From: an uncultured Planctomycetia bacterium | GTDB taxonomy: Bacteria > Omnitrophota > Gorgyraeia > 2-02-FULL-51-18 | Length of the DNA: 53,590 nucleotides | Direction of reading: 5' to 3' | Assembly (NCBI GenBank): GCA_964374005.1 | Contig: CAYJXB010000002.1 | Coordinates: 1 to 53,590, forward strand | Shown here: positions 6,401 through 21,072 of the stretch, in pieces | Layout of the letters: each line of letters starts with the position of its first letter | Position numbering within the stretch: the first letter of the stretch is position 1 | The notes under the pieces: model-generated | The model's input: only the letters and a program-made list of their open reading frames with translations | What the model was told of the DNA's origin: nothing | Databases searched by the model: none | Position numbers and translations under genes: made by a program

Positions 6401-9400
6401 CAACACTGTTCACTGGATCGGCGGCATGGAGCCCAATATTCCTGTCGGATCGAAAGAGGGAGTAGAAGCCGCGATGAAAAAAGCGGTGGCTGGCGGACAG
6501 CGCGAATTTAACGCCGGCGCCGGCGGCAAGTGGGTGGCTTCACCCAAAATGGTGCCTATTGTCCGACCTATTTGGGAAAAAGGTTTCGCCGGACAAACCA
6601 ACGCCGACGGAACGCCCAAAGTAAATAATTTGGAAATGAAAGTCAAACCGCTTACGTACGCCGCAAAAGATGCCACGGGACTCACAAAGCTTCCCGAGGC
6701 TCCGAGAACCATCCGGGGCGCCCGCAATCTTCTCAGCGTCGGTTTGCAGTATGGCAACGCTTTTGAAAGAGGTTTTGCGGCCGCGGCATTGAAACCCGCC
6801 GACTTTTTCGGAAATGACTCCATCTTATATCTTATGGAAGACGCGGCTACCGGTGAAATCCGTCTCAGCATCCTTCACGAGTGGGTGCATAAAAAGGCCG
6901 TTATCACTGAAGATGATTCTGAACTAGGCGTCAAAGCGGGAGATGTGTTTACTGACGAACTCTTTAAGAAACTCTTGGAACAAGAGTATCAAAAATTGTT
7001 AAGCGCGGACAATAAAGACGTGCACGATGATTCCAAGACGACAACGCTTCCGATCGCCCGTCAAATCGTTGAAACTTATGTACTCGATCCGGTGAAGTTT
7101 GCGTGGTACATCGACTTGTTGAACATCGTTCTCAATGTTTCTAACCTCGATGAAGCTACCCGCAGAATCAACCTTTATACGGACACTTGGAAAACCACCG
7201 GCAAACGTATCACGCATAACCTTGATTTTGCCCTCGCCGGCGCGCGGCTGGCGGCGGAAAAAGTGGCCGCACGAGAGAAGTTTGTGATATCTGAGAAAAG
7301 GTTAACGCTAAAAGCTGTCTTAAGACAGATAACCATGCGGGAGCCGTTAACGGTTGAGGTCGAACGTGGCACAACGGTTATACTCAGTAAGGCTGTCACG
7401 GCTTTGGGTCCAAACGAAACAGCGCTTCTTTTAAATAGGGACGATGTGGTGATGGTCAATGGCGAACACCCCACCGTGTCGTTAGAAGGCCGCCAGCAGG
7501 AACTTATCGGGAAATATTCGTCAACGTTGTCAAAACCGTTGAGCCAAACCGACGCCAAATTGGTGCGGCAAATGTTGCGTGATTATGATTACCGTTCAAG
7601 GGGCGTTGGCGCACCTTCGCCGGCTGTTTGGTTCCGTTGGGGGATCGTGTGGGGTCAGATGGCTCTGGACCGCGCGGCAAAATCAGGCGTTAAAAAACGC
7701 ACTGTCGTTCTGGCAAACGACGGAAGGATCGTTGATCCGGAAATTATCGAGGCCTTGGCGGCCGGCTTGGCCTATGCGGGGCTGGATGTAATTTATACTT
7801 CGGCAAAACATATGGATACAGCCACATCCTATTCTTGGTCGGTCAAGCAATTCAATCCTTTAGCTTCGATTTTTATTACTTCCAGTCACGTTGTCGCGGA
7901 AATGGGAGAAAAAATTCAAGGCGGTAAAATCAGCATTTCTGATATCGAAGGCCGTTTGTCCAGCTTGAGTACGCGTGAAATAAAAGACGAATCTTATAAA
8001 TCCTACGGCAAAATTACTCCGGGTACGTCTTCTGCAAGCACGGTTAGTGGAGAAATTGTCGAAGCGGATATTAGAGAAAATGTGATTCGGAACAATGTTT
8101 TGATCGGCCATGCTTTTTCAAAACCAGGGGCTCTCGCTCAATTGGATGAAGCATACAGGAGGGCTCCGGACGACATTCTTACGGTTATCAAAAAATGGGA
8201 GGATGCAATTCCGGCCGGTTCCCTGCCTTTGGACGGCATGGCGATCGTTGTTGACGGCAGGCATACGGAAAGCGGGTCCCTGGGGGTCGAATCCTTAAGG
8301 CGACTTGGCGCCAACGCCATCGGTTTAAATACGGATGTTTACGCGCTTGGCGGCGAGCATGGAGCAGACCCTTCGGCGAGGGAAAATTTATCAGATCTCA
8401 TGAAAAGAATGCATGACGAACGTGTCCTTATCGGCCTATCTTTTGACCTCGACGGGGATAGGGGAGCGATCGTGGTACGTTTTGAAATTACGCAAGCGGA
8501 GTTTGATAAACTGACCGACGATGAAAAAGAAAAATGTTTATTGACGGATGGAAGGATAAGCCGTTTTTTGATTCTTCCGCCGGATAATCTCGAAGCGGCT
8601 CTGATCCGTCCTCTTCTTGAACAGGGCGGATATAGAGACCTGGCCGAGAAAACCGGTGGAAAGAAGCTCGCGTTTGTGCGGGATGTTCTCTCCTCGGATA
8701 TGGTTGACGTCATCGCCAAACAAAACGGAGCGGAATCTTTCTTGACGGACTCCGGTTATGTTTTTCTTAAAGAAAAGGCGCGTGAATTGGAGAAACAAGG
8801 TTATCTAGTCGTGATGTTAGGCGAAAGATCCGGGCATACCTGGACTCGCGTTACCGGCGATTATGAAAATCCTATTGCGGTGGCGATCCAATTCGCGGTC
8901 ATGGCCCGGCAATACCAGACGGCCCATCCGGAGTCGGTGAACCCTTTTATGGATTTTTTTAAGGCCAATACCGTCCCGTTCAAACAATCTCTCCGTTTTC
9001 AGCCTGAGATCTCGATGAGTCTCTTAAGGAAGCTGTCCGGAGTAGACGATTGGCGATTTGAGCTAAACCCGGATGGAAAGACGCTTGAGACCAAACCCAC
9101 GCAAGTGGTGATTGCCGGAGCAAGAAATAGAGTCATAAGGAGTCTGATAAGCTATTTTAGACCTGGAAAAACTTTTGGAGATTTGACGATAGACGAATTG
9201 GTTTATCAAAAACCGAGTACCAGCCCCGATAAAATGTATCGCTTTGTCGAAGTTCGCTTTAAGACGGCAGACGGACTGCCTGCCGGTAAATTCGTGATGC
9301 GCGCCTCATCCAATGACCCTACATTTGTCGCCTCTTATGAAACACCCGCGCGAAAGGGAGAAACACTTGAGTCGCCTTCCGTCCACGACCGGTATATTTC

Positions 9401-12400
9401 CATCGGTGGTATCGTCATGCAATATCTTAGGAGAAAAGGTTTTACGGATGTGCTTGACAGTAAAGACGGCAACACTCAAATTGAGGCGGCGTCCTTAAAA
9501 GCTTATCTCAATTTTTTAGATGCTTTCGGCGCGCGGGCCGTGGAACTGACACCGCTTCTTGGGCTTCCCGCTGTTTTTGACCCGTCGACTCTTGCGGTCA
9601 CCTACGGTGATGGTGTTGGTTTTCTCAAAGCGTGGCAAAAGACAATCGGCGGGAATGTGATGTCGGGGGACGCGTTGTGGAAGAGTCTGAAATTAGCAGT
9701 CGGCTATGTTGATGAAGAAGGAAATGTTGGTCGACAGCCGGACCTTTCGCAATTTTATAGCCCGGAAAAGATCCTCTATCATGGGCATCAAGGCGCTTAC
9801 TGGAATGATAAAAAACTACGGACACTGTTGCAAGAAAACAAATTACGGCCTGATGTTACGGTCCTACCCGCAGGTTTCATCGGGGAGGAATATATCCGGA
9901 CTGAGGGGCATCATCATCTTTCAGGCCTGCCCGAAGTTTACGAGACCGTGTACGGGAGGAACGGCTACCTGCTTTTCAAGACGGTCTCCGAAGATTCCGA
10001 AGATATTGCAGATGTCATGTTTATCTTTGCCGAAGAAGGGGACCACGTCCTCTTTCCACCGGGTTATCAGCATATTAGCATTAATATCGGCGCGACGCCA
10101 TTTGTGATGACGGACTGGGTGAGTACGGAAGCACGCCCTGACTTTGAATATATCAAACGCCACCACGGTGCGCCCTATTGGGTGGTGAAAGGGCCGGATG
10201 GTCAACCCCGCTTCGTGCGGAACCCGCGCTATAAAGGAAAGGTCCCCGAAATCCGGTTGCTTCGACCTGCCGAGGAGATCCCCGAGTTCGGATTGAAGAA
10301 AGGTGTTCCGATGTTCAACCTCGTCAGGGAGGGGAAGATAGGTCTTCTTCGTTTCCTTAACGACACTAATGAATCGGGACGTTACGATGCCATTTACCAA
10401 AAGGCTTTTGTGCCGACTCAAACCCGCTCCGAATCTGGCGCGCGGCTCTCCACAGAGAAGGAGAGCCTGGCGCAGCCCGCCTTAACTTTGGCGGGCGCGC
10501 GGCTGGCGAGTTTTGACGATAAGCTTGAACGAGCTTTGCAAAACTCAAATAGGGAACGCGTCGATGAGCTCGTCCAAAATGATCTACTCAAGGGCAAACA
10601 ATTCCGTCGGTCAATCGGAACAAATGACGCTCGATTTACAACCGGACAAATAGAGCTCCTCGATCTAGCCATCGAAGCGGCATCCGGCGCCCGTCTCGCC
10701 CATCAAGCCGTCATCGCAACCCCCGCAAATCCCGCCGCGTCTCTTAACCAGGACCAGCAAAAACGTCTTTCTCAGCTCGCAGGCCATGAGGTCTCAAGAG
10801 CCTTTATCGAATCCCGTGTTTTTACCTTTTCATTAAGTGACTTTGACCTTTACGCCGAGACACCCAAGAATAAAGAAGATCAGCAGAAGGACGCTATTGC
10901 TAACTTTGTGAAAGGCGCCTGGTCCGCCGGCCGTGAATCTAGGGAGCTTGAAGGCGTGACCCCAGACGAACAAAAGACGGCTGAAAACGATCTCAGGGAT
11001 TCTTTGTCTTTACTTCAAAAAGCCGCTCAACATCTCCCTACCGGCAGTCTGAACCATGTCCGATTTGCTTTTGTTCTTGAGTCCGCGACTCCTAATTCCG
11101 AGGAGGTTAAATTCCTGACCGAGGTTCTGGGGTATCCTCCCCAAACCCACTCTTACTATGGCGAGGCGTCTCCTGAGCTTTACAAAGATGACACAGGTTC
11201 TGTGGTCGCCACCGCCGGCACCTTCCCTTATACAAAGGACGGTCAAGAAGTCAAAGAGCCCCAAACAATCTATCTAAGTGTCGCCTACCTCAAACGCTTG
11301 GCCCAGCTGATTCACCAAGACCAGCCAAGTGCGCAAGAAGTAATAAATCGAGTATCCCATGAGGTAGCCACTTTAAATTGGAACTTATCCGCTGAAGGCG
11401 GTCTTGAAGCCCGAGGCAATGAAGCCATTGAATCCAAAGTAAAAGCGCTCTATCAAAAATCCAAAGACGACCAGAGAGCCAAATGGATTGATCGTGACCA
11501 TAACCGGACCACCGAGCTTTTTGTCAGTGTCGATCTGTCAAAAGTTCTTGGACCGGTCACCCAGATCCCTGAATCGCTGGTTAAGAAAGCCGAGACACTT
11601 CTGGATCAACTCAAGAAACAAGGCGTGATTAAAGACCATTTTATCACGCGCATCGGAAACTACCTTCTCTTGGATATCTCTCATAATGACGGAGCCAAGA
11701 GTCAAAGGATCTCGAGCCTATTAGACGCTGTTTTATTTGGCGCTTTAGATGAGACGGTAAACCAAAGAGGACTTGCCCCTGTTCCGTCAGAGGCTACCCA
11801 GCTTCGCGCACTCCTGAATTGGAAGGAAGGGGAGGTCCGCTATAGCAAGCGGCCCTCACAGCCGACACTTCGCCAGGTCATTGTGGGCGGCGCTGAAAAA
11901 TCCTCGGATGGGATTTTATTTGACCTTTATGCCAGTCCCAATATTACAACCCAACAAGCCATTGAAGGCACACACGGGACTTACTTTGTAGCCCAGAATA
12001 CCGAAGCCAGACAAAAGGGTTTGGGCTTCACCTTGCCCGGGGGCAACAATAACAGGGGCCTGTTCCATCTTCTGGCCGTGTTAAAAACCGCCATGCATAC
12101 GGTGAAGGCCATCTTTGTCGGCAAAACCTCAAGGTTCCCCGTCGATGAACCCGTTGCCCAGGCCATCTCTCTGGGGGATCTTCAAGTTATTTTTTACCAT
12201 TCCCAAGCAGGCGCCGAAGCCGTGGGAGGGATCTCTGGCCCCGGAACCGCTCCGCGGATTATCGAAGGGACCCATGGAAGAAGGCTCTCTCTTAAACCCG
12301 TGACCCTGAAAGAGGCGGTGAATCTTACCCCTGAGAAGCTAAGAGGCGAGTTTGCCGGTTATGCCCCTACCATTATATGGGGAACCCAAGTCTTCGATAA

Positions 12401-15400
12401 AAACCCGCGCCGGACCGGTCAGTTCGATGAAATCGTCGATGTGATCGAGGAAAGCGCCGAATTCAGCGTCAGGGGGGACCTGGATTATATCCGGGATGAG
12501 TTCGCCAAGCTCTTGAACGAACAAGGTTTTTCACAGCCGGCCTTGACGACTGAAAAAGCCAATAGCCAAGCCGGGAAAGCCTTTGATGAATTTAAGGCCC
12601 GGCCCGTCAAGAGACCTAAGCAGATCGAATCCAAAGAGGGAAGACTGACAAGTTCTATTTTTAAGGCTGACATCGGGTCCGCCCTGGGACATACCAAGCC
12701 GCTGTCGGTTTACATGGCCGTGGCAAGGGCTATTCTTGAAAAAGCCAAACGGGACGGTCTGATTAAAGATTATCTGGTGAAACGTAAATCCGTTGATCGG
12801 GAAGCGACCGATGAAAAGAATGGTGTGATCGAATTCCGTGTCGGGGATGATATCGAACTTCAGATCATTCACGACCGGCCTATTCAGGACAAAGAGATCC
12901 ATGGCCTGGCCTGGCGCGCCTTCTGGGCGGCCGGTTGGACGGTCATCGCGGATGATGTCTTGGAGCGCACCCCCTACGGGCTTCTTCAGGACCTTCCCAA
13001 TGCCAAGGATTTAGATTCTTTTGAAGAGGCTAAGATCGATCCTGCGACCTTCGAGATCATGAAGGAAAATTTAAAAGCATTATCCCTTGAGAACCCAAGA
13101 GCTATCGATGAGGATGAGCTCAAAGCCCTTGAGGAAAAATTCCACTCTGAATGGGAAGCGCAGGCTTCCGGTAAGCGCGTGTCAAAGAAAAAGGCCAGCG
13201 CCGCCTTCACCTTTACGGGCAATGTCAAAGGCTCAGGGATTGGTTCGGCGGAAGGTTATGTCGACCCAGGCAACTGGACCGTTTTTGCGTTTGATAAGGC
13301 CTCGCCGGGTGCTTTCAGCGTGCCCTTTATGAAGGCCGCCGAACAGGCCCTGAAAGACGGTGTTTACACCAATCTTCTTTTTGAAGTCGAGAAAGTCCGT
13401 CCTGAATATCAAAATGAAAAAGAGGTCCCGCAGGAACCGATCATTCTTGATTATGCCAATCTCGAGGAAAGAAAACTGATCGAGCGAATGCTTGGCGCCG
13501 TGAATGAATTCCAGATAAAGGCTATCCGTACCGTCGATGCCAACGGCCGTGTCAATCTTGTCGCCTCCAACTCAACCGACAGGCTCTATCAGGTCACTTC
13601 CGGCATATACGCCGGCAAAGATGACCCCGCCGGCATTATGGATACCAAGTTCGCCGAATATACCGTGCGGTGGATGCAGAACAATCTCTTTATCACTGAA
13701 GGCGACGAACGCGGTTCCCACTGGGCGTTTGTGTTACCGGTGGCGATGGACAAATCCTCACCCGGCACTCATTCAATCCCCACGGTGGTCGCCGTGAGCT
13801 TTACGGTGACACCCCATGGCAAGATAGAAAATGTCATTGACGTATTTGAGAACAACAAATTCGATGACATCCGCGCCAAAGCCGCTTATTTTAACTGGGC
13901 CTTTATCCGATCCGTCGGAAACATCGGCCCTAGAGGTGACGCAAGCTCCGTGGAATATACTTATCCCCTGTGGCTTAATATCAATAAGATCACCGCGGAC
14001 AATTCTCCTTACAAGGTTACGATTCCAATACGGGAAGCTGAGACACAACCTTCGGCATTACCGACCGCAACAACGGAAGCAAAGCCAATAACAGATTGGG
14101 AGAATAACATTCTGGCAATTCTTAAGGTTGAGGGCATTCATAATATTGAGGAAATACGTAAGGCAGTTCGCCAGGCTACACATCTTTATAGTAATCATAG
14201 AAACGATCTAACAAATCAGCAAAAAAAAGATTTAAAAGAGGCGATAGATAAACTGCGCAGACAAGTAGAAGGCGCGCGGCTGGCGCAGGAAGAGACAATG
14301 CAGCGTCTCGGTTTCAAACTAGCCGAGGGAGAGCAGAACAGAATCGCTTACAATCCGGATTTTACGCCGCTAGTGCTTAATGCCGATGTATGGATTCAGC
14401 CGCATGCGGTCACATCATTAAATGAGAATTCTATCATTCAAGGTAAAAGAGCGGATGAGGTCGCTAAAGCCGCTAACGACAATATCTCTACTTCGCTTAC
14501 CCAAACGGGCATTCAACAAGCAATACAGAGTTCAAACGAGCTTTGGCAGACTATCGGGAAGAAACTTATAAGCAATGAGTCCGTTATTTTCTTGCGAAGC
14601 CCTCAAAAGCGCTCGAAGGAAACGGCAGCACAATTTGTTGAGGTGGCTCGCACTCACGGAATCACCATCGATAATTCTTCCGACGAGAACGTTTCAAATA
14701 AAGCAGCGTATCAAGTCAAAATCGATGAAAATTTATTCGAGTTGGAGGTTGGCGCGCTCGAATCCAAATCCAGAGCTCAGCTCGAAGAAATCGAAGAATT
14801 GAGGACGGTTTCTAAACGTCAGAAAGAAAGAGACGCGTTTATGAAACCGCCCGCAGGTCAAAATTTACCGGAAGGCCAGAGTTTTATCGAGTTTGCCGAT
14901 CAAGTCGATCGTTTTTTGCAGCACATCAATAAAGAATATGCCGGAAAAACAGTCGTTGTCCTTGGCGCAAGCGCTGTTTGGACAGGCACAGCAAGAACAC
15001 TTCTCAGAACAAGACAGGCCAGGGAATTGTTCAATAAAAATTCATATGTGGATTGGAACGATAGAACGCTTGCACCACACAATAACCGTGAAAATCTGAT
15101 TCACCTGAATGAGGAGATTGCACCGACCGGCGCGCGGCTTGGAGAACGGCTAGAAGCTAGAGGCCGTCAGCTAGTGGCAAAAGAAATCCCTTCAGCCATT
15201 AGCCAACAGCCATTAGCCAATAGCCAACTAGGTGCGCGGCTGGCGAATTTGAGCGCGGATCTGGAGCATCTAAATAGAGGCGATGAATTCGTTCTTCAAT
15301 ATCGTGATAAGGATAAAAATTTACAAAGCATTCACGGTGTTGTTGACTTTGTTTCCATCGGCATAATAGTGACGGGTGATATTCTAGTCGTTTTAGGCAA

Positions 15401-18400
15401 GGGGGTTCTTACCGATAAAGTGGTGAACATAACCTATTTTCCCATAAAGCAGGGCAAAGTATTAAGCGAATCCACGAATATAGAGACGGATTTTAACAGC
15501 ATTGTTCGCGTCAACGCTCCGCCGGCATACGGGAAAAACACCGGCGCGCGGCTGGCGGTGACCAAGTCTTCTAAGGACCAGAGTAATATTTTGATGATTC
15601 CGGCCAAAAAAATTCTGACCGATTTGAGCGCGGATCAATTGTATGAATTAGCCGTCCAGGGCGAGAAGTTACGAGCGGCACAATTCGAAGATGAAATTAG
15701 AACCGACCCGACCGTTGCTGCGATGGCGAATACAAAGGGGAAACCTCTTGCGGATCTTAAGATCGCGCAGTTTAGAGCCGCTTTGCAGGATAATTTTAAA
15801 ACGGCCTATGGCAGCACGATTTACTATAGCAATATCACAAACCGCAGCGCTAAAAAGACATCCCATTATGAAATTGACGGGTTCACGGTAGGCACGGATC
15901 AAATCGCGGCCGATCCGAAGTTCGCACAGAAACTGCTTGCGGCCGTGGAAGATCATTTAAGGAGTCGTGATTTGATCCAAGTGGACCGGAGCGTGGGGCA
16001 GGACCCGTCCGATTCAAGGCATTTCCGGCTTATAGTGGACAGCAAGTATGGCCGTTTGGCGCATGAGCTAACGGCTCTGCATTTTCCCGCCGCGCCCGGT
16101 GCTTCTTCGGCGACGCCGGATATTTTAACGATTGATCTGCCCGATTTTGATTTATCCCAATACGGTTTAGCCGATCAAAAAGAGCCTTACATTTTAAGAA
16201 TTCCCAGCCGCGGGATAAATCTGGTGCTCGGGACGGATTATTTTGGTGAAATTAAAAAATCTGCTCTAACGTCCAACGGTTATCTGGCTAAAGAGGCAGG
16301 CAATCTGGCGCTTCACGCCGGAAGCAAGATCGTGCAAGTCTTGGATGCAAAAACGGGGAAAATCGTCACCAAGCGGGTCATCGCCTCCGGTCTTTCCGGA
16401 ACGGGCAAGACAACGACGCTTGTCGGTACGCAGGGTTTAAGCGGCGACGAATCTTCGACCATGTTTCAGGATGATTTTATCGAATTGCGTATTGAGCGCA
16501 GCGCCGCCGGGAAAATTACCGGGGTGAAAGTCAAAGGATTGGAAGCGGGCGTTTACTATAAGACCGAACGCCTTGATCCGAACAAAGAACCAGAATTATT
16601 TAAGGCCGCCAAACACCCGAGCACGATTTTGTCGAATGTATGGATGAACCAGGCCAAGGACGGTTTGGTGCCAGATTATGACAATACCGATATTACGGGC
16701 AATGGCCGCGGTGTGGTGAGCCGCGCACAAATCACGGATCATCCTTCCGTGGATATGGACGGTTTGGATATCGTCGTTTGGTTGACGCGCCGCGAGACGA
16801 TCGTGCCGGCTATGGCCAAATTAAACCCCGACCTGGCGGCGGCTTTGTTTTTGCTCGGCGAATCCGTTATCACTTCAGCGGCTGACCCGACACGGGCCGG
16901 GGAATCCGTGCGTGAGGCCGGATTTAGCCCGTTTATTGTCGGGTCCGTTTCGGCTGAAGCCAATTTATTGTTGGAAATTTTTGAAGCGCTTCCTCAGATC
17001 GAAGTGGTGTTGGCAAATACCGGCAAAGTCGGGGCGACTTACGGCGAAGGCGCCAAGCCGGGCGCGAAAATTGATGTGCCGGATTCCGCCGCGCTTTTTA
17101 AAGCGCTCTTTCGCGGGAATATTGCGACACGCCCTGATCCGGATTGGGGATATGAAGTCGCTTACGAAGTGCCGGATTATGATATTTCCAGACTTGACCC
17201 GGGCGTTCACTACACTCCGGATGGAATAGCGGCTCTGACCGCAAAACTCCGCGCAGAACGCGTTCAGTGGCTTCAAAGATTTCCCGGGCTAAACCCAAAA
17301 ATCATAGATGCTATTCAAAACCCCAACGCCGGCGCGCGGCTTGGAGAACGGCTAGAAGCTAGAGGCCGTCAGCTAGTGGCAAAAGAAATCCCTTCAGCCA
17401 TTAGCCAACAGCCATTAGCCAATAGCCAACTAGGTGCGCGGCTGGCGGATGTTAATGCCTTAAAACAGGAGATCAAAAGGGCGGCGTCCAATTTATTAGC
17501 CATGGTTAGTGACAAATCTTTTGAAGAGCGTGTTTCTCATTCCAGCATTTCTTCGGGCGATATCGCCAAATTCTTGGACATAACTAAGCAGTTGGAAACG
17601 GTTCTAAAGCAGTTCCTGGATGAGCGGGATCCGCGTTTCTATGAAAATTATGATGCTCTTGTAGACGATGTCGATCAAGTATTCCGGGATAAGACGAATA
17701 TCATTTTTGACTATGCTTTTCAGGAAGGTGCGGAAGATTTTATGGTTGCGATAGGACCTTTCTACCAAGCTTTCATCGAACTGGTTAATTCTTTGAACGC
17801 GTTGAAACTTTCAAGAGGCGCGCGGTTGGCGAGTGAGCAAGGGCAGGTGGATTTGCTTAACGAGGTCAAAGACTATCTTAATTCTCCCGAAGGTATTACT
17901 CGACGGGAGAAAGGAGATACGCGAATCATTTATCTCAAATCAGTGCTTAAGGGTACCGTCAATAAACCCCAAGGCCAGTGGCTTACGGACGAACAAATAA
18001 GGGGTATAAAGACCCATTTGCGGGATTTAAAGCAGATAGCTTATACCGATCCGCTGGTTCTTAAAAAATGGGCGAAAGGAAAAATCAATGCAAATATTCC
18101 GGCAGAGAACATCGCCGAGGCGTTGTTCGAACGAATCGCGCGCGTTCTCGAATATCAAAAGACCGGACATGATGCGACGGTGTGGATGCGCACGGCGGCA
18201 CCCGCCACGACGGAAACAATCCTCGCTATACGGGATGCAGCTAAACAAAAGGAAGCGGCTCTCCGGTTCATTCAAATGATCTTGCCCGTTGCGCCGGAAA
18301 AAGTCGATGCCTATCAAGCAAGAGCCATCACTGAACTGGCGGTTCAATTAAGACTCACGGACACAGTCGTCATTGATTCTCTCCGTATGATTATCGAAGC

Positions 18401-20930
18401 TGACAAGAAACGCGAACGTCCATTTTCAAATCCCCAGATTTTAAGAAATGCTCAGAAAGCCTTATCGCCTAGCCAAGAGGGCGCGCGGCTGGCGTTGGTT
18501 TTGACCCGCAAAGAAGGCCAATCTATTCTGATCGGTGACAACATCAGGGTAAAAGTGGAACGAATTAACCGGACCGGCCGTGATAAATTTATTGTACTTT
18601 TGGGCACCGTGGCTCCTAAAAATGTGGCGGTAAACAGGCAGGAGATCTATGATGCCAAGATCAGGGATAACACTCCGCTTGTGAAACCTGAAGACCGACA
18701 CCGTACGGAAGGTACGCATCCGGTTTATGCGCGCAAAGAGGGTGAATCCATCGTGATCGGCGGCCCCGAAAATAAAATTACGATTAAAGCGACAAATATA
18801 GTATACGATCGGCTAAGTCTTGTGATTGAAGCACCCAAGTCCGTCCGTATTTTGCGCGCGGAACTCCGCGGCGCGCGGTTGGCGGCTAACGATCGCGTTC
18901 GCCAGATACAGGAAAGATTGGTCGAGATTGAGACAAAACTTAGAGAATTAAGCAAACAGGAAAGATATTTAGAAAAGCAGCCTGTGCTTAAACCGAACAC
19001 GATCGGCGTCGAAATTGGCAAACTCAATAAAGAAAAGAGGGTATTAACAGAAGAACTCGGACGATTGCAATCTTCAACGGATGGCGCGCGGCTAGCGTTG
19101 GTGTTAGGGACAAAAGAAGGTGACACCATTGAAATTTTTGATAAAAATAAGGACAATCCGCTTTACACACTTAGAATTCAGAAATACTTGCCTGGTAAGG
19201 GAAGCGAAAGATCCCATGTCCTTCTTGAGGTCGAAGATCGAAAGTCCAAGCAATTCTCTTCGCTGGTTCTTTTTCTAAGAGGATATGAACCTGGAAGCGA
19301 GCAGTATGTCACAACGTTGGACAGCCAAAAACAAATAAGCCTTTTCTTCTCCGGATTAGCCGAAGGCAGGACTAACCAACCTATCAAACTCGCTTTCACG
19401 GCCCCGAGAGACATCTTAATTTACAGAAGCAAGCTAATCTCCGGTGCGCGGCTGGCGAATGAAGAGATCCCTACCGCAGAAAGGTTAGCTGCCGCAAAAG
19501 AGTTATACGAACGTATTCTCGAACTGATTACTTCTCCTCTACTGCAACCGCGGAAAGAACAATTGACCGACGGGATCAAAGAATTAGAAGAGACGATCCG
19601 CGCCTTAGGCGTTGCGCGCAACAAATTGACTCCACAAGATAAGGGAGTGGGCTTTGATGCCGACATTTTAAAGCAAATAGAAAGTTTAGAAGAACTATTA
19701 CAGGAAGTAAGATTAAAAGAATCCGGCCCCCGGCCCTACGGGCCGATAGGCCCGGAGGGCGCTCGACTCGTAGCAGCGCCGAAGGAAACGCGTTTCCCGC
19801 AAGAGCTATTGGACAGTGTGAAAAGGCCTCTAGTTTTTCGCGATAATTCCTTAAACGCGTTATTGAACCGCGAGCGTGATAATGCAGTCAGTAATGTCTC
19901 TGAATTTGGTCCAGAAGTCGTTGAGTCCCCTGAGCTAAAGGCCTTTGCCCTGGAGCTTTTTGTTGCAAGGACGCGGGACATTCGTTCGAGCAAGCTTTTC
20001 GCGCTCGCCTCATTCGTTTTTGAACCGGTTGTCGTCAAAGAAGGAGAGAAAGAAGTCTATTACTTGAAAGTCAGGAACCAAGAAGGACAGGGCAATAAGA
20101 TTAAGATACTGTCGTCCACTCAGCTTGCAAAAGAGGTAAGGTCGGAACTCACGAAGCTCCGCGCAACAGAAGTTCATGCTGAGAATGTTCAACAGGGCCT
20201 GGTCCAGGCGATCACCATCGCGGATCACGAGATTCGCCAGGCCGTTTTTTCAAATCTTTCGGATGTTTCAAGCCCTGTGACCTATGAACTGCCATTAAGC
20301 ATTTTCTCCGGATTTCAGTCAAAAGACGCTTCTCAGTTTGAAGTTCACGCCGAATACCTTGTTCTGCGAGCCCTGGCTTTCCTGAAACAAAGGGAAAATC
20401 GCCAAAGCCATTTGTATCTAAGCGGTTTAGAGGTCCTCACGCAAGCTCAGCAAACATTTTTCCGTGAAGCGGTTCAAAAATATCGGGCCGAGAATCTGAT
20501 CTTGTTCGGGACGGCGAAAGGCGATGTGATCGTGCAATTCGTGGACGCAGATACCCATCGTGAGGAGCTAAATCTGGATGTTTTCCGGAAAGTTTATATT
20601 CCCATTAACCGTATCCAAACAGAGGAATTGGCCGACTGGGCGGGCCGTTTCTACATCAGCGGCGGGCTCGCACATTTCTTTTCTTCGGGTGGTCAGCTGG
20701 ATTTCAAGGGCTACGATAAGACAAAGATCAGTCGGGTGCTGGATGTTTACAATTCCAGATCCTACGAGGCGATCTCAGACAGCGAGAAATTTGTCCAAGT
20801 CCTATCCGGACAAGAAAAGAAAGTAGCCGTCCTGAGGCGGTTTGTGCTGGGTAAAATTTACAAGATTCCGTTTGATAATATATTCCTGGCTTTCAGCACC
20901 ATGAAACGCATGCTAAGTCAAGCCGCTTAA
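18..20930 (+). CDS. Giant multi-enzyme fusion ORF (at least 6970 aa; central-carbon polyprotein-like), probably 5-prime incomplete in this window
   Basis: No in-frame stop for 6970 codons. The frame is also open from nt 3 to the ATG at 18, so the gene may start upstream. The translation contains, in order, TPI, isocitrate lyase, enoyl-CoA hydratase-like, malate synthase, PMM/PGM-like, cupin PGI, FBP aldolase/phosphatase x2, histidine phosphatase, ATP-PEPCK and CsrA-like modules. Twenty-one G-A-R-L-A-type pentapeptides separate the modules. Stop TAA 20928-20930 is followed by a hairpin terminator. Confidence 0.9.
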   Translation: MFSKMSQESETKAVLITGGYHAPNLKSLLKSKKISYVSIRPQVFHETNQKRYEKLLLNQQIDPTLVNRYIANVGKLQSHSTANMLRPWMGKDMPFLAAIAGEFGAPLSVLGVRSSEFGLPKISPLPTPSSELTPGARLAGKEDIWISGDQRLGDRGIGVSGTSTQQLTDSTAQQSLGARLANDLKAINLSGRPFWLSAEEGSKLVTTLLAELPANQREADILRPVQQYAKGGFNPSDVPPTTLRLSGHLIEFRNRSAGTWEKLHVDPADIFLIDVDGEIVIFPGLKNKLSTELSPEVLQGQVAYAEVNPLDRDKAALLQQLDQAESFSRKPVIGGNLKLEFESPIQHEQLIHEIAGSLEALKNQRPNLDLGSIDVFIAPQDAHLEALARAIQLLELRGEIRRGLIKLGAQNVSHGEKGAHTSGLPTAQTLKNLGVEYVIVGHSEAREELRETDQEINQKIKNLIAIGGLKPVLAVGESAGQRQAGQTEGFVRMQVLRGLDGLTADQILTSGLVIAYEPIWAIGPKAIGAASPEEANRIQKIIRQALLEQFGLEVASKTRIQYGGSVKPENVASFEQELNIDGGLIGGAAKKGDTFVPILSAFAASGARLATAISAEKREKIASINRFLNQPRFNRIKANRLWTADDLYEVMVEEGVFEAPKLQNILADKLYNAAAEAQRTRSFVATGGVMDGPNAAAMAEAGAKILYFSGWQMSHHYGEPDLAKYPLDTVPKRIAEIYKFLQNKDTNQKVVFRQRIKAIEKIFDELFREIRAKSPAELNQAKAAWVARFVSAATENGKSKWIYVNATRENPNLYIGAIFEKIVEEAIAQKSSTSQQKRDALREASYFALKAQLVDYLIPIFADGDTGHQSVKEMVRLFVAANSASIHMEDQVQGEKKCGHMSGKVLVSISEHMKRLVEARKEADKLGSNLVIIARTDAEAAKLLQSNDDIRDHYFILGTSTKNLPKLKYIIQLARRDFSDSQIRLDELAGQHPDLVAAIRKVWTLRGVITGRRVEPNQLFSNEAGYTLDAEEIWNSRESIEFGEDRLTMDTVLDTTYDDSTVASLSVQEILNLKPADIEDEIAAMRALSDLWNSKAQLKTFAQTVADAIQDEAKRKQWLALTNPLNESTETQKVPRSIEELREAAKAEFGVEVDWDWEPARTFEGYYQIDKKLGVVNSSVRMREFLKIADIGWMEQDGPNKKHSAELSANVKAVPQGKDAFLSLNLSPSFDWSNPEKWKDSLTEEQIANIKAAKALKGFNWNKQDTWRKYSKDILFFLDMLENFSPEMGKLGYQIQFVTIFQDHNSTLNTYRVGMDLVSRGAAGYVRNVQQEEQRLDSRFERHQTAAGVPRVDGEDRLSNRGASDLSAGGKDSTEHGFAALGIQLGEEAGLGAFTGEEVLFSAENGVAFITLNRPTSGNALTLEMVRQLRTYLAQVKTDPNIKAVVLKGVGTNFSTGDDIKSVVRAIHEGKIGFVDRFYEEQYALLQEIMDLSRAKAVISFVNGWVISSALGLVSSGNFIVADETTKFAALDTGLGLPLGNANPYHMRLRVRTPAARYYGLTGDSFNVAESNALGFENIFYSPATNLAELESDIKKLVSELSRRGFDADDILRELGVILKQRTGEVDRTSPKLEGINKYFGSDKATLLEIVQSLEAQRNTDPFAEQTLKILQLRSPIALQVTLSLIDEVTSFKDALDHQLKAVKYLATQNPDYAEGVQAILGFDVSAGTKTEKREPRFTGEMGKVDVAELTKAFGISVGARLAEISFREDDKVGNVEGAYKDIYTPETLSVLKKLAPLTAEQNDLMKKRYNRREDRAANKKDITFLNPNSYIPGTKIYVRDARKGNFEGASIPQDLQRQWIQGTGPAARPRETLERSLRNIAYALLSGADGWMFDGEDALGQVDTMSLDNIRNLTLAIHKDPIFMKVAENLAQELVRDGFQPAGFDWKKQLDFTTKLYRTRGLHLNDRHTIVTIDGKEYAMSATIVDMVLYIVNNYERLLDEGSTPTFYLPKLQTAEEAAFMAKIMDALEDSLIYKDKPLERGTIKAFVLVEQLEESFQLMEIRAALGKHFVGFNTGRWDYINSVSDAKAWDEKFINPNIEEITMTYGYMGNYEDRVRRASYTPDRNGNTVHWIGGMEPNIPVGSKEGVEAAMKKAVAGGQREFNAGAGGKWVASPKMVPIVRPIWEKGFAGQTNADGTPKVNNLEMKVKPLTYAAKDATGLTKLPEAPRTIRGARNLLSVGLQYGNAFERGFAAAALKPADFFGNDSILYLMEDAATGEIRLSILHEWVHKKAVITEDDSELGVKAGDVFTDELFKKLLEQEYQKLLSADNKDVHDDSKTTTLPIARQIVETYVLDPVKFAWYIDLLNIVLNVSNLDEATRRINLYTDTWKTTGKRITHNLDFALAGARLAAEKVAAREKFVISEKRLTLKAVLRQITMREPLTVEVERGTTVILSKAVTALGPNETALLLNRDDVVMVNGEHPTVSLEGRQQELIGKYSSTLSKPLSQTDAKLVRQMLRDYDYRSRGVGAPSPAVWFRWGIVWGQMALDRAAKSGVKKRTVVLANDGRIVDPEIIEALAAGLAYAGLDVIYTSAKHMDTATSYSWSVKQFNPLASIFITSSHVVAEMGEKIQGGKISISDIEGRLSSLSTREIKDESYKSYGKITPGTSSASTVSGEIVEADIRENVIRNNVLIGHAFSKPGALAQLDEAYRRAPDDILTVIKKWEDAIPAGSLPLDGMAIVVDGRHTESGSLGVESLRRLGANAIGLNTDVYALGGEHGADPSARENLSDLMKRMHDERVLIGLSFDLDGDRGAIVVRFEITQAEFDKLTDDEKEKCLLTDGRISRFLILPPDNLEAALIRPLLEQGGYRDLAEKTGGKKLAFVRDVLSSDMVDVIAKQNGAESFLTDSGYVFLKEKARELEKQGYLVVMLGERSGHTWTRVTGDYENPIAVAIQFAVMARQYQTAHPESVNPFMDFFKANTVPFKQSLRFQPEISMSLLRKLSGVDDWRFELNPDGKTLETKPTQVVIAGARNRVIRSLISYFRPGKTFGDLTIDELVYQKPSTSPDKMYRFVEVRFKTADGLPAGKFVMRASSNDPTFVASYETPARKGETLESPSVHDRYISIGGIVMQYLRRKGFTDVLDSKDGNTQIEAASLKAYLNFLDAFGARAVELTPLLGLPAVFDPSTLAVTYGDGVGFLKAWQKTIGGNVMSGDALWKSLKLAVGYVDEEGNVGRQPDLSQFYSPEKILYHGHQGAYWNDKKLRTLLQENKLRPDVTVLPAGFIGEEYIRTEGHHHLSGLPEVYETVYGRNGYLLFKTVSEDSEDIADVMFIFAEEGDHVLFPPGYQHISINIGATPFVMTDWVSTEARPDFEYIKRHHGAPYWVVKGPDGQPRFVRNPRYKGKVPEIRLLRPAEEIPEFGLKKGVPMFNLVREGKIGLLRFLNDTNESGRYDAIYQKAFVPTQTRSESGARLSTEKESLAQPALTLAGARLASFDDKLERALQNSNRERVDELVQNDLLKGKQFRRSIGTNDARFTTGQIELLDLAIEAASGARLAHQAVIATPANPAASLNQDQQKRLSQLAGHEVSRAFIESRVFTFSLSDFDLYAETPKNKEDQQKDAIANFVKGAWSAGRESRELEGVTPDEQKTAENDLRDSLSLLQKAAQHLPTGSLNHVRFAFVLESATPNSEEVKFLTEVLGYPPQTHSYYGEASPELYKDDTGSVVATAGTFPYTKDGQEVKEPQTIYLSVAYLKRLAQLIHQDQPSAQEVINRVSHEVATLNWNLSAEGGLEARGNEAIESKVKALYQKSKDDQRAKWIDRDHNRTTELFVSVDLSKVLGPVTQIPESLVKKAETLLDQLKKQGVIKDHFITRIGNYLLLDISHNDGAKSQRISSLLDAVLFGALDETVNQRGLAPVPSEATQLRALLNWKEGEVRYSKRPSQPTLRQVIVGGAEKSSDGILFDLYASPNITTQQAIEGTHGTYFVAQNTEARQKGLGFTLPGGNNNRGLFHLLAVLKTAMHTVKAIFVGKTSRFPVDEPVAQAISLGDLQVIFYHSQAGAEAVGGISGPGTAPRIIEGTHGRRLSLKPVTLKEAVNLTPEKLRGEFAGYAPTIIWGTQVFDKNPRRTGQFDEIVDVIEESAEFSVRGDLDYIRDEFAKLLNEQGFSQPALTTEKANSQAGKAFDEFKARPVKRPKQIESKEGRLTSSIFKADIGSALGHTKPLSVYMAVARAILEKAKRDGLIKDYLVKRKSVDREATDEKNGVIEFRVGDDIELQIIHDRPIQDKEIHGLAWRAFWAAGWTVIADDVLERTPYGLLQDLPNAKDLDSFEEAKIDPATFEIMKENLKALSLENPRAIDEDELKALEEKFHSEWEAQASGKRVSKKKASAAFTFTGNVKGSGIGSAEGYVDPGNWTVFAFDKASPGAFSVPFMKAAEQALKDGVYTNLLFEVEKVRPEYQNEKEVPQEPIILDYANLEERKLIERMLGAVNEFQIKAIRTVDANGRVNLVASNSTDRLYQVTSGIYAGKDDPAGIMDTKFAEYTVRWMQNNLFITEGDERGSHWAFVLPVAMDKSSPGTHSIPTVVAVSFTVTPHGKIENVIDVFENNKFDDIRAKAAYFNWAFIRSVGNIGPRGDASSVEYTYPLWLNINKITADNSPYKVTIPIREAETQPSALPTATTEAKPITDWENNILAILKVEGIHNIEEIRKAVRQATHLYSNHRNDLTNQQKKDLKEAIDKLRRQVEGARLAQEETMQRLGFKLAEGEQNRIAYNPDFTPLVLNADVWIQPHAVTSLNENSIIQGKRADEVAKAANDNISTSLTQTGIQQAIQSSNELWQTIGKKLISNESVIFLRSPQKRSKETAAQFVEVARTHGITIDNSSDENVSNKAAYQVKIDENLFELEVGALESKSRAQLEEIEELRTVSKRQKERDAFMKPPAGQNLPEGQSFIEFADQVDRFLQHINKEYAGKTVVVLGASAVWTGTARTLLRTRQARELFNKNSYVDWNDRTLAPHNNRENLIHLNEEIAPTGARLGERLEARGRQLVAKEIPSAISQQPLANSQLGARLANLSADLEHLNRGDEFVLQYRDKDKNLQSIHGVVDFVSIGIIVTGDILVVLGKGVLTDKVVNITYFPIKQGKVLSESTNIETDFNSIVRVNAPPAYGKNTGARLAVTKSSKDQSNILMIPAKKILTDLSADQLYELAVQGEKLRAAQFEDEIRTDPTVAAMANTKGKPLADLKIAQFRAALQDNFKTAYGSTIYYSNITNRSAKKTSHYEIDGFTVGTDQIAADPKFAQKLLAAVEDHLRSRDLIQVDRSVGQDPSDSRHFRLIVDSKYGRLAHELTALHFPAAPGASSATPDILTIDLPDFDLSQYGLADQKEPYILRIPSRGINLVLGTDYFGEIKKSALTSNGYLAKEAGNLALHAGSKIVQVLDAKTGKIVTKRVIASGLSGTGKTTTLVGTQGLSGDESSTMFQDDFIELRIERSAAGKITGVKVKGLEAGVYYKTERLDPNKEPELFKAAKHPSTILSNVWMNQAKDGLVPDYDNTDITGNGRGVVSRAQITDHPSVDMDGLDIVVWLTRRETIVPAMAKLNPDLAAALFLLGESVITSAADPTRAGESVREAGFSPFIVGSVSAEANLLLEIFEALPQIEVVLANTGKVGATYGEGAKPGAKIDVPDSAALFKALFRGNIATRPDPDWGYEVAYEVPDYDISRLDPGVHYTPDGIAALTAKLRAERVQWLQRFPGLNPKIIDAIQNPNAGARLGERLEARGRQLVAKEIPSAISQQPLANSQLGARLADVNALKQEIKRAASNLLAMVSDKSFEERVSHSSISSGDIAKFLDITKQLETVLKQFLDERDPRFYENYDALVDDVDQVFRDKTNIIFDYAFQEGAEDFMVAIGPFYQAFIELVNSLNALKLSRGARLASEQGQVDLLNEVKDYLNSPEGITRREKGDTRIIYLKSVLKGTVNKPQGQWLTDEQIRGIKTHLRDLKQIAYTDPLVLKKWAKGKINANIPAENIAEALFERIARVLEYQKTGHDATVWMRTAAPATTETILAIRDAAKQKEAALRFIQMILPVAPEKVDAYQARAITELAVQLRLTDTVVIDSLRMIIEADKKRERPFSNPQILRNAQKALSPSQEGARLALVLTRKEGQSILIGDNIRVKVERINRTGRDKFIVLLGTVAPKNVAVNRQEIYDAKIRDNTPLVKPEDRHRTEGTHPVYARKEGESIVIGGPENKITIKATNIVYDRLSLVIEAPKSVRILRAELRGARLAANDRVRQIQERLVEIETKLRELSKQERYLEKQPVLKPNTIGVEIGKLNKEKRVLTEELGRLQSSTDGARLALVLGTKEGDTIEIFDKNKDNPLYTLRIQKYLPGKGSERSHVLLEVEDRKSKQFSSLVLFLRGYEPGSEQYVTTLDSQKQISLFFSGLAEGRTNQPIKLAFTAPRDILIYRSKLISGARLANEEIPTAERLAAAKELYERILELITSPLLQPRKEQLTDGIKELEETIRALGVARNKLTPQDKGVGFDADILKQIESLEELLQEVRLKESGPRPYGPIGPEGARLVAAPKETRFPQELLDSVKRPLVFRDNSLNALLNRERDNAVSNVSEFGPEVVESPELKAFALELFVARTRDIRSSKLFALASFVFEPVVVKEGEKEVYYLKVRNQEGQGNKIKILSSTQLAKEVRSELTKLRATEVHAENVQQGLVQAITIADHEIRQAVFSNLSDVSSPVTYELPLSIFSGFQSKDASQFEVHAEYLVLRALAFLKQRENRQSHLYLSGLEVLTQAQQTFFREAVQKYRAENLILFGTAKGDVIVQFVDADTHREELNLDVFRKVYIPINRIQTEELADWAGRFYISGGLAHFFSSGGQLDFKGYDKTKISRVLDVYNSRSYEAISDSEKFVQVLSGQEKKVAVLRRFVLGKIYKIPFDNIFLAFSTMKRMLSQAA
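1008..1832 (+). other. Triosephosphate isomerase module (preceded by an unassigned extension of about 150 aa, 561..1007)
   Basis: GGNLKLE (cf. NWK), GAQN, VGHSEAR (cf. GHSERR), AYEPIWAIG, YGGSV, GGLIGGAA. The catalytic N/K/H/E positions are retained. Confidence 0.8.
1848..4151 (+). other. Isocitrate lyase module (long form, about 770 aa)
   Basis: YFSGWQ, FADGDTGH, HMEDQ, KKCGHMSGK (ICL signature K-[KR]-C-G-H), IIARTDA, and the C-terminal HQ..AG...STEHGF. It begins directly after a GARLA junction. Confidence 0.85.
4206..5291 (+). other. Enoyl-CoA hydratase / 3-hydroxyisobutyryl-CoA hydrolase-like (crotonase fold) module
   Basis: EEVLFSAENGVAFITLNRPTSGNAL, AVVLKGVGTNFSTGDDI, and a long ECH_2-like C-terminal extension. 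Confidence 0.7.
5307..7238 (+). other. Malate synthase (A-type) module
   Basis: WMFDGEDALGQ, RGLHLNDRH, YLPKLQTAEEA, IKAFVLVEQLE, GFNTGRWDYINS, GGMEPNIP, GKWVASPKM, MEDAATGEIRLS. Confidence 0.85.
7579..9527 (+). other. Phosphomannomutase/phosphoglucomutase-like module (preceded by an unassigned extension of about 108 aa, 7254..7578)
   Basis: YDYRSRG (cf. YDIRG), VVLANDGR, ITSSH phosphoserine loop (cf. TASHNP), SFDLDGDRGAIV metal loop, GERSGH. Confidence 0.65.
9543..10436 (+). other. Cupin-type (archaeal-type) glucose-6-phosphate isomerase module
   Basis: TEGHHHLSGLPEVYETVYGRNG and PPGYQHISINIG match the cPGI motifs T-x-G-H-x-H...E-x-Y and PP-x3-H-x3-N. Confidence 0.7.
11508..12530 (+). other. 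Degenerate FBP aldolase/phosphatase-like module (probable pseudo-enzyme copy)
   Basis: It is collinear with the next module (LFVSVDLSKVLG vs IFKADIGSALGH; ITRIGNYLLLDISH vs RVGDDIELQIIH). The K and D of the KADIGS motif are replaced. Confidence 0.45.
12645..14030 (+). other. Fructose-1,6-bisphosphate aldolase/phosphatase (class V FBPase) module with insertions
   Basis: IFKADIGSALGH, VGDDIELQIIH, TGNVKGSGIG, YAGKDDPAGI, GDERGSHWAFVLPV. Confidence 0.75.
14286..15128 (+). other. Histidine-phosphatase (phosphoglycerate-mutase superfamily) module with atypical catalytic motifs
   Basis: WIQPHAVTSLN (cf. RHGET), LTQTGIQQA, SPQKRSKETA (cf. SPLxRAxxTA). The Arg of RHG and the distal His (VLGASAVW vs SHG) are not conserved. 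Confidence 0.5.
15129..15245 (+). repeat. 117-bp perfect direct repeat, copy 1 (GARLG - 29-aa spacer - GARLA)
   Basis: Base-for-base identical to 17331..17447, read directly from the sequence. Confidence 0.95.
15558..17330 (+). other. ATP-dependent phosphoenolpyruvate carboxykinase module
   Basis: LGTDYFGEIKK, LHAGSK, SGLSGTGKTTT (kinase-1a loop), FQDDF, GVYYKT, ITGNGRGVV. Confidence 0.8.
17331..17447 (+). repeat. 117-bp perfect direct repeat, copy 2
   Basis: Identical to 15129..15245. The two copies bracket the 99-aa unknown module plus the PEPCK module. The offset of 2202 nt is a multiple of 3. Confidence 0.95.
18495..18869 (+). other. Tandem CsrA-like (carbon storage regulator) RNA-binding module
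   Basis: LVLTRKEGQSILIGDNIRVKV...APKNVAVNRQEIY (cf. CsrA MLILTRKVGESI...APKEVSVHREEIY), then a second copy ARKEGESIVIG...LVIEAPKSVRILRAEL. The first copy begins exactly at the GARLA junction. Confidence 0.75.
19098..19442 (+). other. Second, more diverged CsrA-like module (apparently also two half-copies)
   Basis: LVLGTKEGDTIEIF directly after GARLA; C-terminal IKLAFTAPRDILIYRSKL (cf. IGIEAPKEVSVHREEI). Confidence 0.5.
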
Positions 20931-20956
20931 TCTGATACTTTCTTAATCTTAACTAA

Positions 20957-20985
20957 GGGCGGGCCAAAAGCCCGCCCTTTTCCTT
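20957..20985 (+). terminator. Rho-independent terminator of the giant ORF
   Basis: GGGCGGGC-caaaa-GCCCGCCC followed by TTTTCCTTTT, 27 nt after the stop codon. Confidence 0.75.
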
Positions 20986-21001
20986 TTGTCCTCCCATTGA
21001 G

Positions 21002-21052
21002 GGGTCAGAGGGGTCAGACCCCTCAAATGCAGGGGTCTGACCCCTCTGACCC
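21002..21052. repeat. 22-bp perfect inverted repeat built from GGGGTCAGACCCC-type units
   Basis: gggtcagaggggtcagacccct - caaatgc - aggggtctgacccctctgaccc. A related unit is at 43073..43085. Confidence 0.85.
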
Positions 21053-21072
21053 TTACACCTTTTATAAGGCAC

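Follow-up and report, generated by a model that had tools for sequence, protein, structure and literature searches.

A giant Omnitrophota reading frame punctuated by GARLA motifs carries a tandem CsrA module among carbon-flux enzymes

We analyzed a complete 53,590-nucleotide metagenomic contig (CAYJXB010000002.1, positions 1 to 53,590; hereafter the window), which begins with a giant open reading frame (ORF) at 3-20930 on the + strand. We observed that this ORF places carbon-flux enzymes and CsrA in one polypeptide. It is a single uninterrupted frame of at least 6,975 codons with its stop at 20928-20930, and it forms a chain of 22 modules, many of which are each one complete protein. The modules are delimited by a five-residue motif, G-[A/S]-R-[L/M]-[A/S/G/V/T], which we call the GARLA separator. 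We propose that the product is a polyprotein processed at GARLA; a tandem CsrA and the gluconeogenic and glyoxylate enzymes would be set free by this cleavage. We infer the cleavage, the RNA binding and the regulatory logic from sequence, and place the probability of this reading at roughly 0.55. BipA of the window is 83-84% identical to proteins of named Candidatus Omnitrophica metagenome-assembled genomes (other matches reach 93-94%); by this comparison, the source organism is a Candidatus Omnitrophota bacterium. Exact-match look-ups of the neighbouring proteins YceI and BipA returned no record.

The initial annotation had placed two consecutive CsrA-like units with a conserved Arg at 18495-18869. 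A profile scan agreed: this module holds two consecutive CsrA-family domains (Pfam PF02599) of 51.0 and 43.0 bits, against a gathering score of 27 bits (whole module, E = 7.9e-24). Unit 1 (LVLTRKEGQSILIG...VAPKNVAVNRQEIY) lies at 18495..18656 on the + strand (module amino acids (aa) 2-54, profile 3-50/53). Unit 2 (VYARKEGESIVIG...IEAPKSVRILRAELR) follows at 18726..18869 on the same strand (module aa ~78-124, profile 5-47/53). Between them, at 18657..18725 (+), is a linker of ~23 aa that is predicted to be disordered (AlphaFold2 (AF2) predicted local distance difference test score (pLDDT) <50 at module residues 50-83); its length is comparable to that of the linkers of free-standing tandem CsrAs. 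A phmmer search of the PDB with the module returned RsmE/CsrA chains, led by 2jpp (E = 2.6e-6) and followed by 7yr6, 1vpz, 2bti and 1y00. Unit 1 showed 42-58% identity to stand-alone CsrAs in a search of 5.8 billion proteins. The two units are 42% identical to each other, and unit 1 is closest to single-domain CsrAs. Upon alignment with 19 stand-alone CsrAs, both units were found to keep beta1 (LVLTRKEG and VYARKEGE), the (E)APK motif and the beta5 Arg (VNRQEIY and ILRAEL). The RNA-binding residues of CsrA are L2, L4, R6 and R7 in beta1 and R44, E46 and I47 in beta5, the beta5 Arg being critical (PMC7652899). These positions are kept as LVLTRK...VNRQEIY in unit 1 and as VYARK...ILRAEL in unit 2.

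CsrA works only as an intertwined dimer, and the two units in one chain are therefore expected to fold as a single-chain pseudo-dimer; we consider this the most likely fold from the sequence. It would present two RNA-binding faces, each composed of beta1 of one unit and beta5 of the other. The initial annotation had raised this fold as a possibility, and it is made plausible by stand-alone two-unit CsrAs, which are common and match the module end to end. Free-standing two-unit CsrAs of 115-260 aa made up 35 of the 96 representative matches listed, and aligned with 27-41% identity over the whole module; one further protein has four units. In the free-standing tandems, unit identity was higher within a protein (57%) than between proteins (45%), so the tandems appear to have arisen repeatedly, by internal duplication. 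We found no description of tandem or single-chain CsrA in the literature.

We then mapped the separator. It occurs in frame 20 times in the giant ORF, compared with 0.026 copies expected from composition, together with one GARAV variant (start 9528, + strand). It was absent from the 9,139 aa of the other 30 window genes. Separators at 18480..18494 (GGCGCGCGGCTGGCG) and 18870..18884 directly precede CsrA unit 1 and directly follow unit 2, and those at 19083..19097 (GGCGCGCGGCTAGCG) and 19443..19457 directly bracket a further module at 19098-19442 (all + strand). The two intervals that the initial annotation had drawn as CsrA modules are exactly the stretches between two separators. A GARLV variant (19758..19772, +) stands before the C-terminal domain, and the remaining copies start at 420, 546, 1833, 5292, 7239, 10437, 10494, 10686, 14271, 15129, 15231, 15543, 17331, 17433 and 17817. 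In nucleotide terms the consensus is GGCGCGCGGCTGGCG, and with as many as three mismatches allowed it matched the whole window 25 times (shuffle mean 2.5). Of these matches, 20 were on the + strand inside the giant ORF, 19 of them at separators. All separator copies were direct and in frame.

Six more giant ORFs, each on a contig other than the window, have modules bounded by the same motif. Its composition across the 92 sites in the seven ORFs was G92, A81/S11, R92, L89/M3 and A75/S5/G4/V4/T4. The flanks showed no conservation except a small residue ([A/S/T]) at position -1. The start of CsrA unit 1 lies one residue beyond GARLA, at the place of the initiator Met of free CsrAs; the triosephosphate isomerase (TPI) profile TIM ends 5 aa ahead of a separator; and in a syntenic contig (L001) a class I aldolase (profile 2-332/349) occupies the whole interval between two separators. 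On these alignments, the separators sit at the native protein termini of complete modules. The synonymous positions are conserved as well (consensus GGC GCG CGG CTG GCG): Arg is CGG at 77 of 92 sites, compared with a background of 11-33% (p down to 1e-14 per ORF). Orthologous separators drift at third codon positions. We considered a synthetic-construct origin, raised by the GCGCGC core, and ruled it out, given that independent environmental contigs carry the motif with drift. A literature search for GARLA or for a bacterial polyprotein with CsrA returned nothing relevant.

The initial annotation had stated that the CsrA modules share a polypeptide with carbon-flux enzymes, and Pfam identified nine further enzyme families in the CsrA frame (all + strand). 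The first is a TPI domain at 1008..1820 inside module 561-1832 (TIM, 194.6 bits, profile 1-244/245), in which the catalytic K, H and E motifs are readable (AYEPIWAIG and GHSE in the translation). Module 1848..5291 contains an isocitrate lyase (ICL, 291.6 bits, with KKCGH) and an enoyl-CoA hydratase/hydrolase-like domain (ECH_2, 163.6 bits). A malate synthase follows at 5307..7238 (MS_TIM-barrel, 145 bits; MS_C, 31.6 bits), then a phosphoglucomutase (PGM)/phosphomannomutase at 7254..9527 (PGM_PMM_I, II and III) and a cupin-type glucose-6-phosphate isomerase at 9543..10436 (GPI, 85 bits). Module 10701..14270 carries a class V fructose-1,6-bisphosphatase (FBPase) family domain (FBPase_3, 153 bits); the ~650 aa ahead of that domain (10701-12650) gave no recognisable family in Pfam or the PDB. 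The last two enzymes are a PGAM-like histidine phosphatase at 14286..15128 (His_Phos_1, 31 bits) and an ATP-dependent phosphoenolpyruvate (PEP) carboxykinase (PEPCK) at 15558..17330 (PEPCK_ATP, 176.7 bits, profile 22-463/465, with GLSGTGKTT present). No family could be assigned by Pfam or PDB searches to the segments 561-1007, 15246-15542 and 17448-18479. As a separate observation, the ICL and the ECH_2 domain, which is 3-hydroxyisobutyryl-CoA hydrolase-like, stand together in module 1848-5291 with no separator between them.

A more diverged CsrA pair had been annotated at 19098..19442, and here the ends match CsrA and the middle does not. This 115-aa module (+ strand), a possible degenerate tandem CsrA, starts with LVLGTKEGDTIEI, resembling beta1-beta2, and ends with PIKLAFTAPRDILIYRSKL, resembling beta4-beta5. 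The Pfam CsrA match covered just the last 24 residues and scored 17.9 bits, below the gathering score. A lineage-specific CsrA profile, based on close homologues, gave no match to the module, the NCBIfam csrA model gave E = 0.14, and a homologue search with 19083-19457 found nothing. Directly after the separator, and in the same register as in module 18495-18869, the first 15 residues (LVLGTKEGDTIEIFD) share 60% identity with the beginning of that module (E = 0.018). Against a tandem-CsrA profile, hhalign placed the last 20 residues (PIKLAFTAPRDILIYRSKL) on beta4-beta5 of its second unit (E = 3.9e-4, but with a probability of only 35%). AF2 with a tandem-CsrA alignment predicted an all-beta fold of nine strands at moderate confidence (pLDDT 75.5, predicted template modelling score (pTM) 0.66). 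The Arg is kept only in the second half (ILIYRSKL). These data are suggestive of a second, degenerate tandem CsrA, which would keep at most one binding face. A second, decayed tandem also fits the pattern in that a relative of the giant ORF, P0025, has two tandem-CsrA modules.

To find relatives, we ran an exhaustive HMMER search of 1.84 billion representatives, each standing for a 50%-identity cluster, with the last 1,037 residues of the giant ORF as the query. Besides many small CsrAs, it returned three other giant proteins (P0022, 3,795 aa; P0023, 2,769 aa; P0025, 3,270 aa), all of them divided by GARLA, GSRLA, GARLV or GARMA motifs. The contig that encodes P0022 (L001) is syntenic with the window, sharing the giant ORF, YceI, LpxA and a branched-chain amino-acid ABC transporter. 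The cargo of P0022 differs from that of the window ORF and includes HEAT repeats, a GlpX-type FBPase and a class I aldolase. Between these two ORFs some modules are common at 80% identity and most content is different; the L001 ORF also has a duplicated module. P0023 carries AceK and PGM. The two tandem-CsrA modules of P0025 end at separators, and one unit of each tandem lacks the beta5 Arg. Widespread single-chain tandem CsrAs would permit asymmetric RNA-binding faces, which are impossible for a homodimer. Directly downstream of P0025 we also observed a second giant gene (8,426 aa by gene call; 10512-20411 of its contig L002, also in L003 and L004). It encodes ClpB-like AAA+ and GHMP-kinase domains, and its GARLA-type motifs are sparser.

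We scanned metagenomes for two separators spaced by 125-135 aa and obtained four more probable GARLA polyproteins (L005, L008, L012 and L015). The cargo of the ORFs found in this way includes TIM, adenylate kinase, a 2H phosphodiesterase and a receiver domain. The scan returned no tandem CsrA, and its remaining matches were GC-rich or out-of-frame chance occurrences. A genome scan for GARLA directly before LVLTRK gave six chance matches in unrelated phyla. The initial annotation had called it unusual to find the regulator fused to the enzyme set that it controls. To describe this as a regulator joined to its own regulon makes the fusion look more specific than it is, because giant genes of this type gather cytosolic proteins of many kinds. 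The cargo of related GARLA polyproteins includes unrelated proteins such as a ClpB-like ATPase, adenylate kinase, a receiver domain and HEAT repeats, and Omnitrophota giants with TPI, GPI, FBPase, PGM and aldolase had already been reported.

The giant ORF is open to the first codon of the contig and is thus 5'-truncated by the contig edge. Its first 100 aa, read from upstream of an ATG at 18, are 46% identical to P0025 aa 467-562 (E = 1e-23). From this match, ~470 N-terminal codons were probably lost at the contig edge, including a signal-peptide-like start, which suggests a full-length protein of ~7,500 aa.

The most economical reading of these data is processing, because a strict short motif at native protein borders tolerates exactly conservative changes. 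GARLA is probably a cutting site, with endoproteolysis occurring either after Gly-Ala/Ser, as by double-glycine-type C39 peptidases, or after Leu/Met. One transcript, translated once, would then yield the enzymes and the RNA-binding regulator in fixed stoichiometry, and processing would free a ~14 kDa tandem CsrA in a fixed ratio to the gluconeogenic and glyoxylate enzymes. Co-release by processing, one of two roles put forward by the initial annotation, gains support here, as every module, including both CsrA modules, is bracketed by GARLA at native termini. An RNA-binding global regulator in the same polypeptide as gluconeogenic and glyoxylate enzymes would couple regulator and enzyme dosage in an unusual way. 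The main value lies in the separator, because it makes the open question of giant-protein processing directly testable: a strict separator at native borders provides a candidate cleavage map for giant proteins and allows their in silico splitting for structure and function prediction.

Several results weigh against this reading. We did not detect a peptidase domain by Pfam in the 6,975 aa present, in the N-terminal 634 aa of P0025 or beside any of the loci; the only peptidase family among neighbouring genes was a PBP5-type S11, which we judged unrelated. Modules without a family, whether N-terminal, C-terminal or internal, were also compared with Pfam and the PDB, which gave no protease or other assignable fold. 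The conserved synonymous positions of the separator are not explained by protein-level selection for a protease site. CsrA unit 2 stops right after beta5, without a C-terminal helix of its own. The NCBIfam csrA equivalog cut-off (TIGR00202 / NF002469) was narrowly missed by the module (68.4 vs 70.1 bits; units, 44 and 33 bits), and because of these scores the units are best described as divergent CsrA-family members for which iso-function with CsrA is not demonstrable. AF2 of module 18495-18869 predicted strands only, at moderate confidence (pLDDT 61, pTM 0.55), with the linker disordered. Foldseek of the AF2 models against single PDB chains gave nothing significant (RsmN 4kji only, E = 0.6-2). 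Since a PDB chain of CsrA makes up only one half of the intertwined dimer, this outcome was expected and does not count as a negative. A local Csr circuit, the elements of which the initial annotation had suggested looking for (GGA sites, a stand-alone csrA, fliW, Csr small RNAs), did not emerge in the window. An Rfam scan gave no family and no Csr small RNA, ANGGA/GGA showed no cluster and no enrichment over synonymous-codon shuffles, FliW was not found among the window ORFs scanned, and the CsrA profile found no further csrA in the six-frame translation.

A possible alternative, which we regard as doubtful, is that the protein stays intact as a scaffold or metabolon. The enzymes would be held together for channelling, possibly anchored at the N-terminus, GARLA would be a structural hinge or docking peptide, and the CsrA modules would tether RNA (such as the mRNA of the protein itself or a regulatory RNA) to the assembly. 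The lack of a protease in the giant ORF is in keeping with a scaffold, and Nielsen & Lui 2026 (10.64898/2026.06.07.730766) read most Omnitrophota long proteins as intact and membrane-anchored. The separator also continues directly from CsrA beta5 where free CsrAs have a helix (RAELRGARLA vs HREEIYxxI), so it need not be an exposed loop. Against a scaffold, the separators coincide with the native termini of complete proteins, and a strictly conserved five-residue motif is unlike flexible linkers. CsrA beta1 must pair in the dimer core, yet it begins exactly after a separator. We found no convincing transmembrane segment across the 6,975 aa present.

It is also conceivable, but unlikely, that the separator acts mainly at the level of nucleic acid. 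The 15-nucleotide (nt) sequence GGCGCGCGGCTGGCG would then serve for in-frame recombination or cassette exchange, or would act as a signal for mRNA processing or ribosome pausing. This would explain the gain, loss and duplication of modules, with the CsrA tandem as one captured cassette, and it is compatible with proteolytic processing. The conservation of synonymous positions in all seven ORFs fits this idea, as does the direct and in-frame arrangement of every separator copy. The synonymous-site conservation may point to a further mechanism, acting on nucleic acid, that is not accounted for by any current model. A 122-nt direct repeat is present at 15127..15248 and 17329..17450 (+ strand). 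Its two copies are 99% identical, encode a 29-aa mini-module with a separator on each side, and flank a block of a 99-aa module and PEPCK, like a cassette between duplicated junctions. This repeat and the differing content of the syntenic window and L001 ORFs, which share modules at 80% identity and of which L001 has one duplicated, keep alive a DNA-level cassette junction or an RNA- or translation-level signal. However, 15 nt are short for homologous recombination, no recombinase was found nearby, the motif tolerates peptide-site substitutions (A/S at position 2, L/M at 4, small residues at 5), and the third-position drift of orthologous separators also speaks against a primarily nucleic-acid role. 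We regard as speculative, though worth stating, a two-level "punctuation" of Omnitrophota giant genes, in which GGCGCGCGGCTGGCG (GARLA) would be both a DNA cassette junction, at which modules are gained, lost or duplicated in frame, and a protein processing site. If true, these giant genes would amount to operons that lack intergenic regions and even include a post-transcriptional regulator of their own in the form of a single-chain CsrA.

By analogy with MARTX or PCAT systems, the product could instead be an exported effector polyprotein, secreted through its N-terminal signal and cut at GARLA during or after delivery, which we also consider improbable. In a bacterial host or prey, the released enzymes and CsrA would redirect carbon metabolism and translation toward sugar production for the parasite. 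P0025 and P0023 begin with signal-peptide-like hydrophobic segments and have no peptidase Pfam match. Double-glycine C39 peptidases accept G-[A/S], and MARTX effectors are freed by a cut after Leu. Omnitrophota have been described as host-dependent or predatory, with giant proteins that carry signal peptides and C39 peptidase domains (10.1101/2023.11.21.568195, 10.64898/2026.06.07.730766). On the other hand, the enzymes require cytosolic substrates (ATP, acetyl-CoA, PEP), neither the window nor the loci of the relatives showed a secretion system or a C39 domain, the N-terminus is missing from the window ORF, and every step of this reading is inferential. Finally, an artefact, either a chimeric assembly or a decaying pseudogene array that stays open, is very hard to credit: the contig is metagenomic and neither protein search returned the window's giant protein, but 6,975 stop-free codons are impossible by chance, the catalytic motifs are intact, this architecture recurs in L001, an independent syntenic contig, and in five other contigs, and a 15-nt repeat is shorter than typical assembly k-mers.

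The remaining parts of the giant ORF are likewise on the + strand. The contig begins inside a conserved N-terminal domain (3-419), which is the region with 46% identity to P0025 and has no Pfam or PDB match. The P0025 counterpart of this domain (L002 599-2500) follows the signal-peptide-like segment and is a candidate anchor or processing domain. Between the two CsrA modules is a 66-aa module that resembles a coiled coil by eye (18885..19082), which together with its flanking separators is 80% identical to a module that occurs twice in the syntenic L001/P0022. A genome-collection scan with an alignment of this module gave 166 pattern matches, 0 of them confirmed. A 100-aa module rich in charged residues follows at 19458..19757 (translation and Pfam search). 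Neither Pfam nor the PDB gave a match for the conserved C-terminal domain at 19773..20927, which P0022, P0023 and several short proteins also have. We observed this domain (~250-385 aa) in the window ORF, P0022, P0023, P0026, P0044, P0046 and P0047. In every case it forms the extreme C-terminus, and its last residues are ...SA or ...AA; its alignment proved too divergent to serve in a locus search. The domain is carried by giant polyproteins and by short proteins, one of which has a histidine-kinase-like region (by eye) and GARLA before the domain.

The 3' side of the giant ORF has a single strong terminator, an intrinsic hairpin with a T-tract at 20955..20979 (+ strand), 25 nt past the stop codon. 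Just downstream, at 20998-21055, is a long palindrome (gaggggtcagaggggtcagacccctc ... aggggtctgacccctctgaccc) with the look of a repetitive extragenic palindromic (REP) element. A MazE/AbrB-type antitoxin and PIN-domain toxin pair (21148-21808) lies between the giant ORF and yceI; this pair is absent at that position in the syntenic L001.

We compared module 18495-18869 and the giant ORF with known systems. Module 18495-18869 resembles the CsrA/RsmA family (PF02599; 1Y00, 2JPP, 1VPZ) in that both units are over threshold and share beta1 L-x-L-T/A-R-K-x-G-E/Q, APK and the beta5 Arg. That family forms homodimers of ~60-75-aa subunits, whereas here two units lie in one chain inside a ~7,000-aa protein. 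The free-standing tandem CsrAs from metagenomes (for example P0024, P0030 and P0035) share the unit-linker-unit order and a similar linker length with the module; unlike it, they are independent genes that start with Met. Such tandems are encoded by many bacteria as proteins of ~130-170 aa.

With viral polyproteins, C39 leader processing and MARTX toxins, the window ORF shares a short strict motif that borders complete functional modules. The alphavirus nsP2 protease cuts after G-A/G, and the CPD of MARTX toxins cuts after Leu to release effectors. Double-glycine-type C39 cysteine peptidases accept G-[A/S]. G-[A/S], like a Leu with a small residue after it, is a classic signature of the P2-P1 or P1-P1' type. 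The window ORF differs from these polyproteins in that no protease was found and in that its cargo is housekeeping metabolism and an RNA regulator. Its separator is also conserved at synonymous sites, and we know of no such conservation of a cleavage motif in viral, C39 or MARTX systems.

The closest known systems are the giant proteins of Omnitrophota, which come from the same phylum and share a very long ORF tiled with glycolytic and gluconeogenic enzyme domains, with cleavage suspected. West-Roberts et al. 2023 (bioRxiv 10.1101/2023.11.21.568195) described such proteins ("Archaeovorins") with TPI, GPI, FBPase, PGM and aldolase domains and many other enzymes; they proposed post-translational cleavage by C39 or S8 peptidase domains and stated that information on the cleavage points was lacking. 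Nielsen & Lui 2026 (bioRxiv 10.64898/2026.06.07.730766) list "multi-enzyme metabolic clusters" as one architectural class of Omnitrophota long proteins. Because both preprints describe such giants, the fusion of glycolytic and gluconeogenic enzymes is not new. The lower length limit of the giants in these preprints is 10,000 aa (Nielsen & Lui) or 30,000 aa (West-Roberts), compared with ~7,500 aa for the protein described here; as only ~470 aa seem to be missing by homology to P0025, the window protein would be below both length thresholds. The preprint giants also have many transmembrane segments, adhesion repeats and C39/S8 and SecA domains, none of which is in the part of the window protein that is present. 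CsrA, PF02599, isocitrate lyase and the word polyprotein are absent from the text of both preprints, neither describes a separator or cleavage motif, and malate synthase and PEPCK are absent, by Pfam accession, from that of Nielsen & Lui. The CsrA modules and the separator appear to be new. Overall, the window ORF is best filed as a GARLA-punctuated polyprotein with single-chain CsrA modules, a variant of the known multi-enzyme giant proteins of Omnitrophota.

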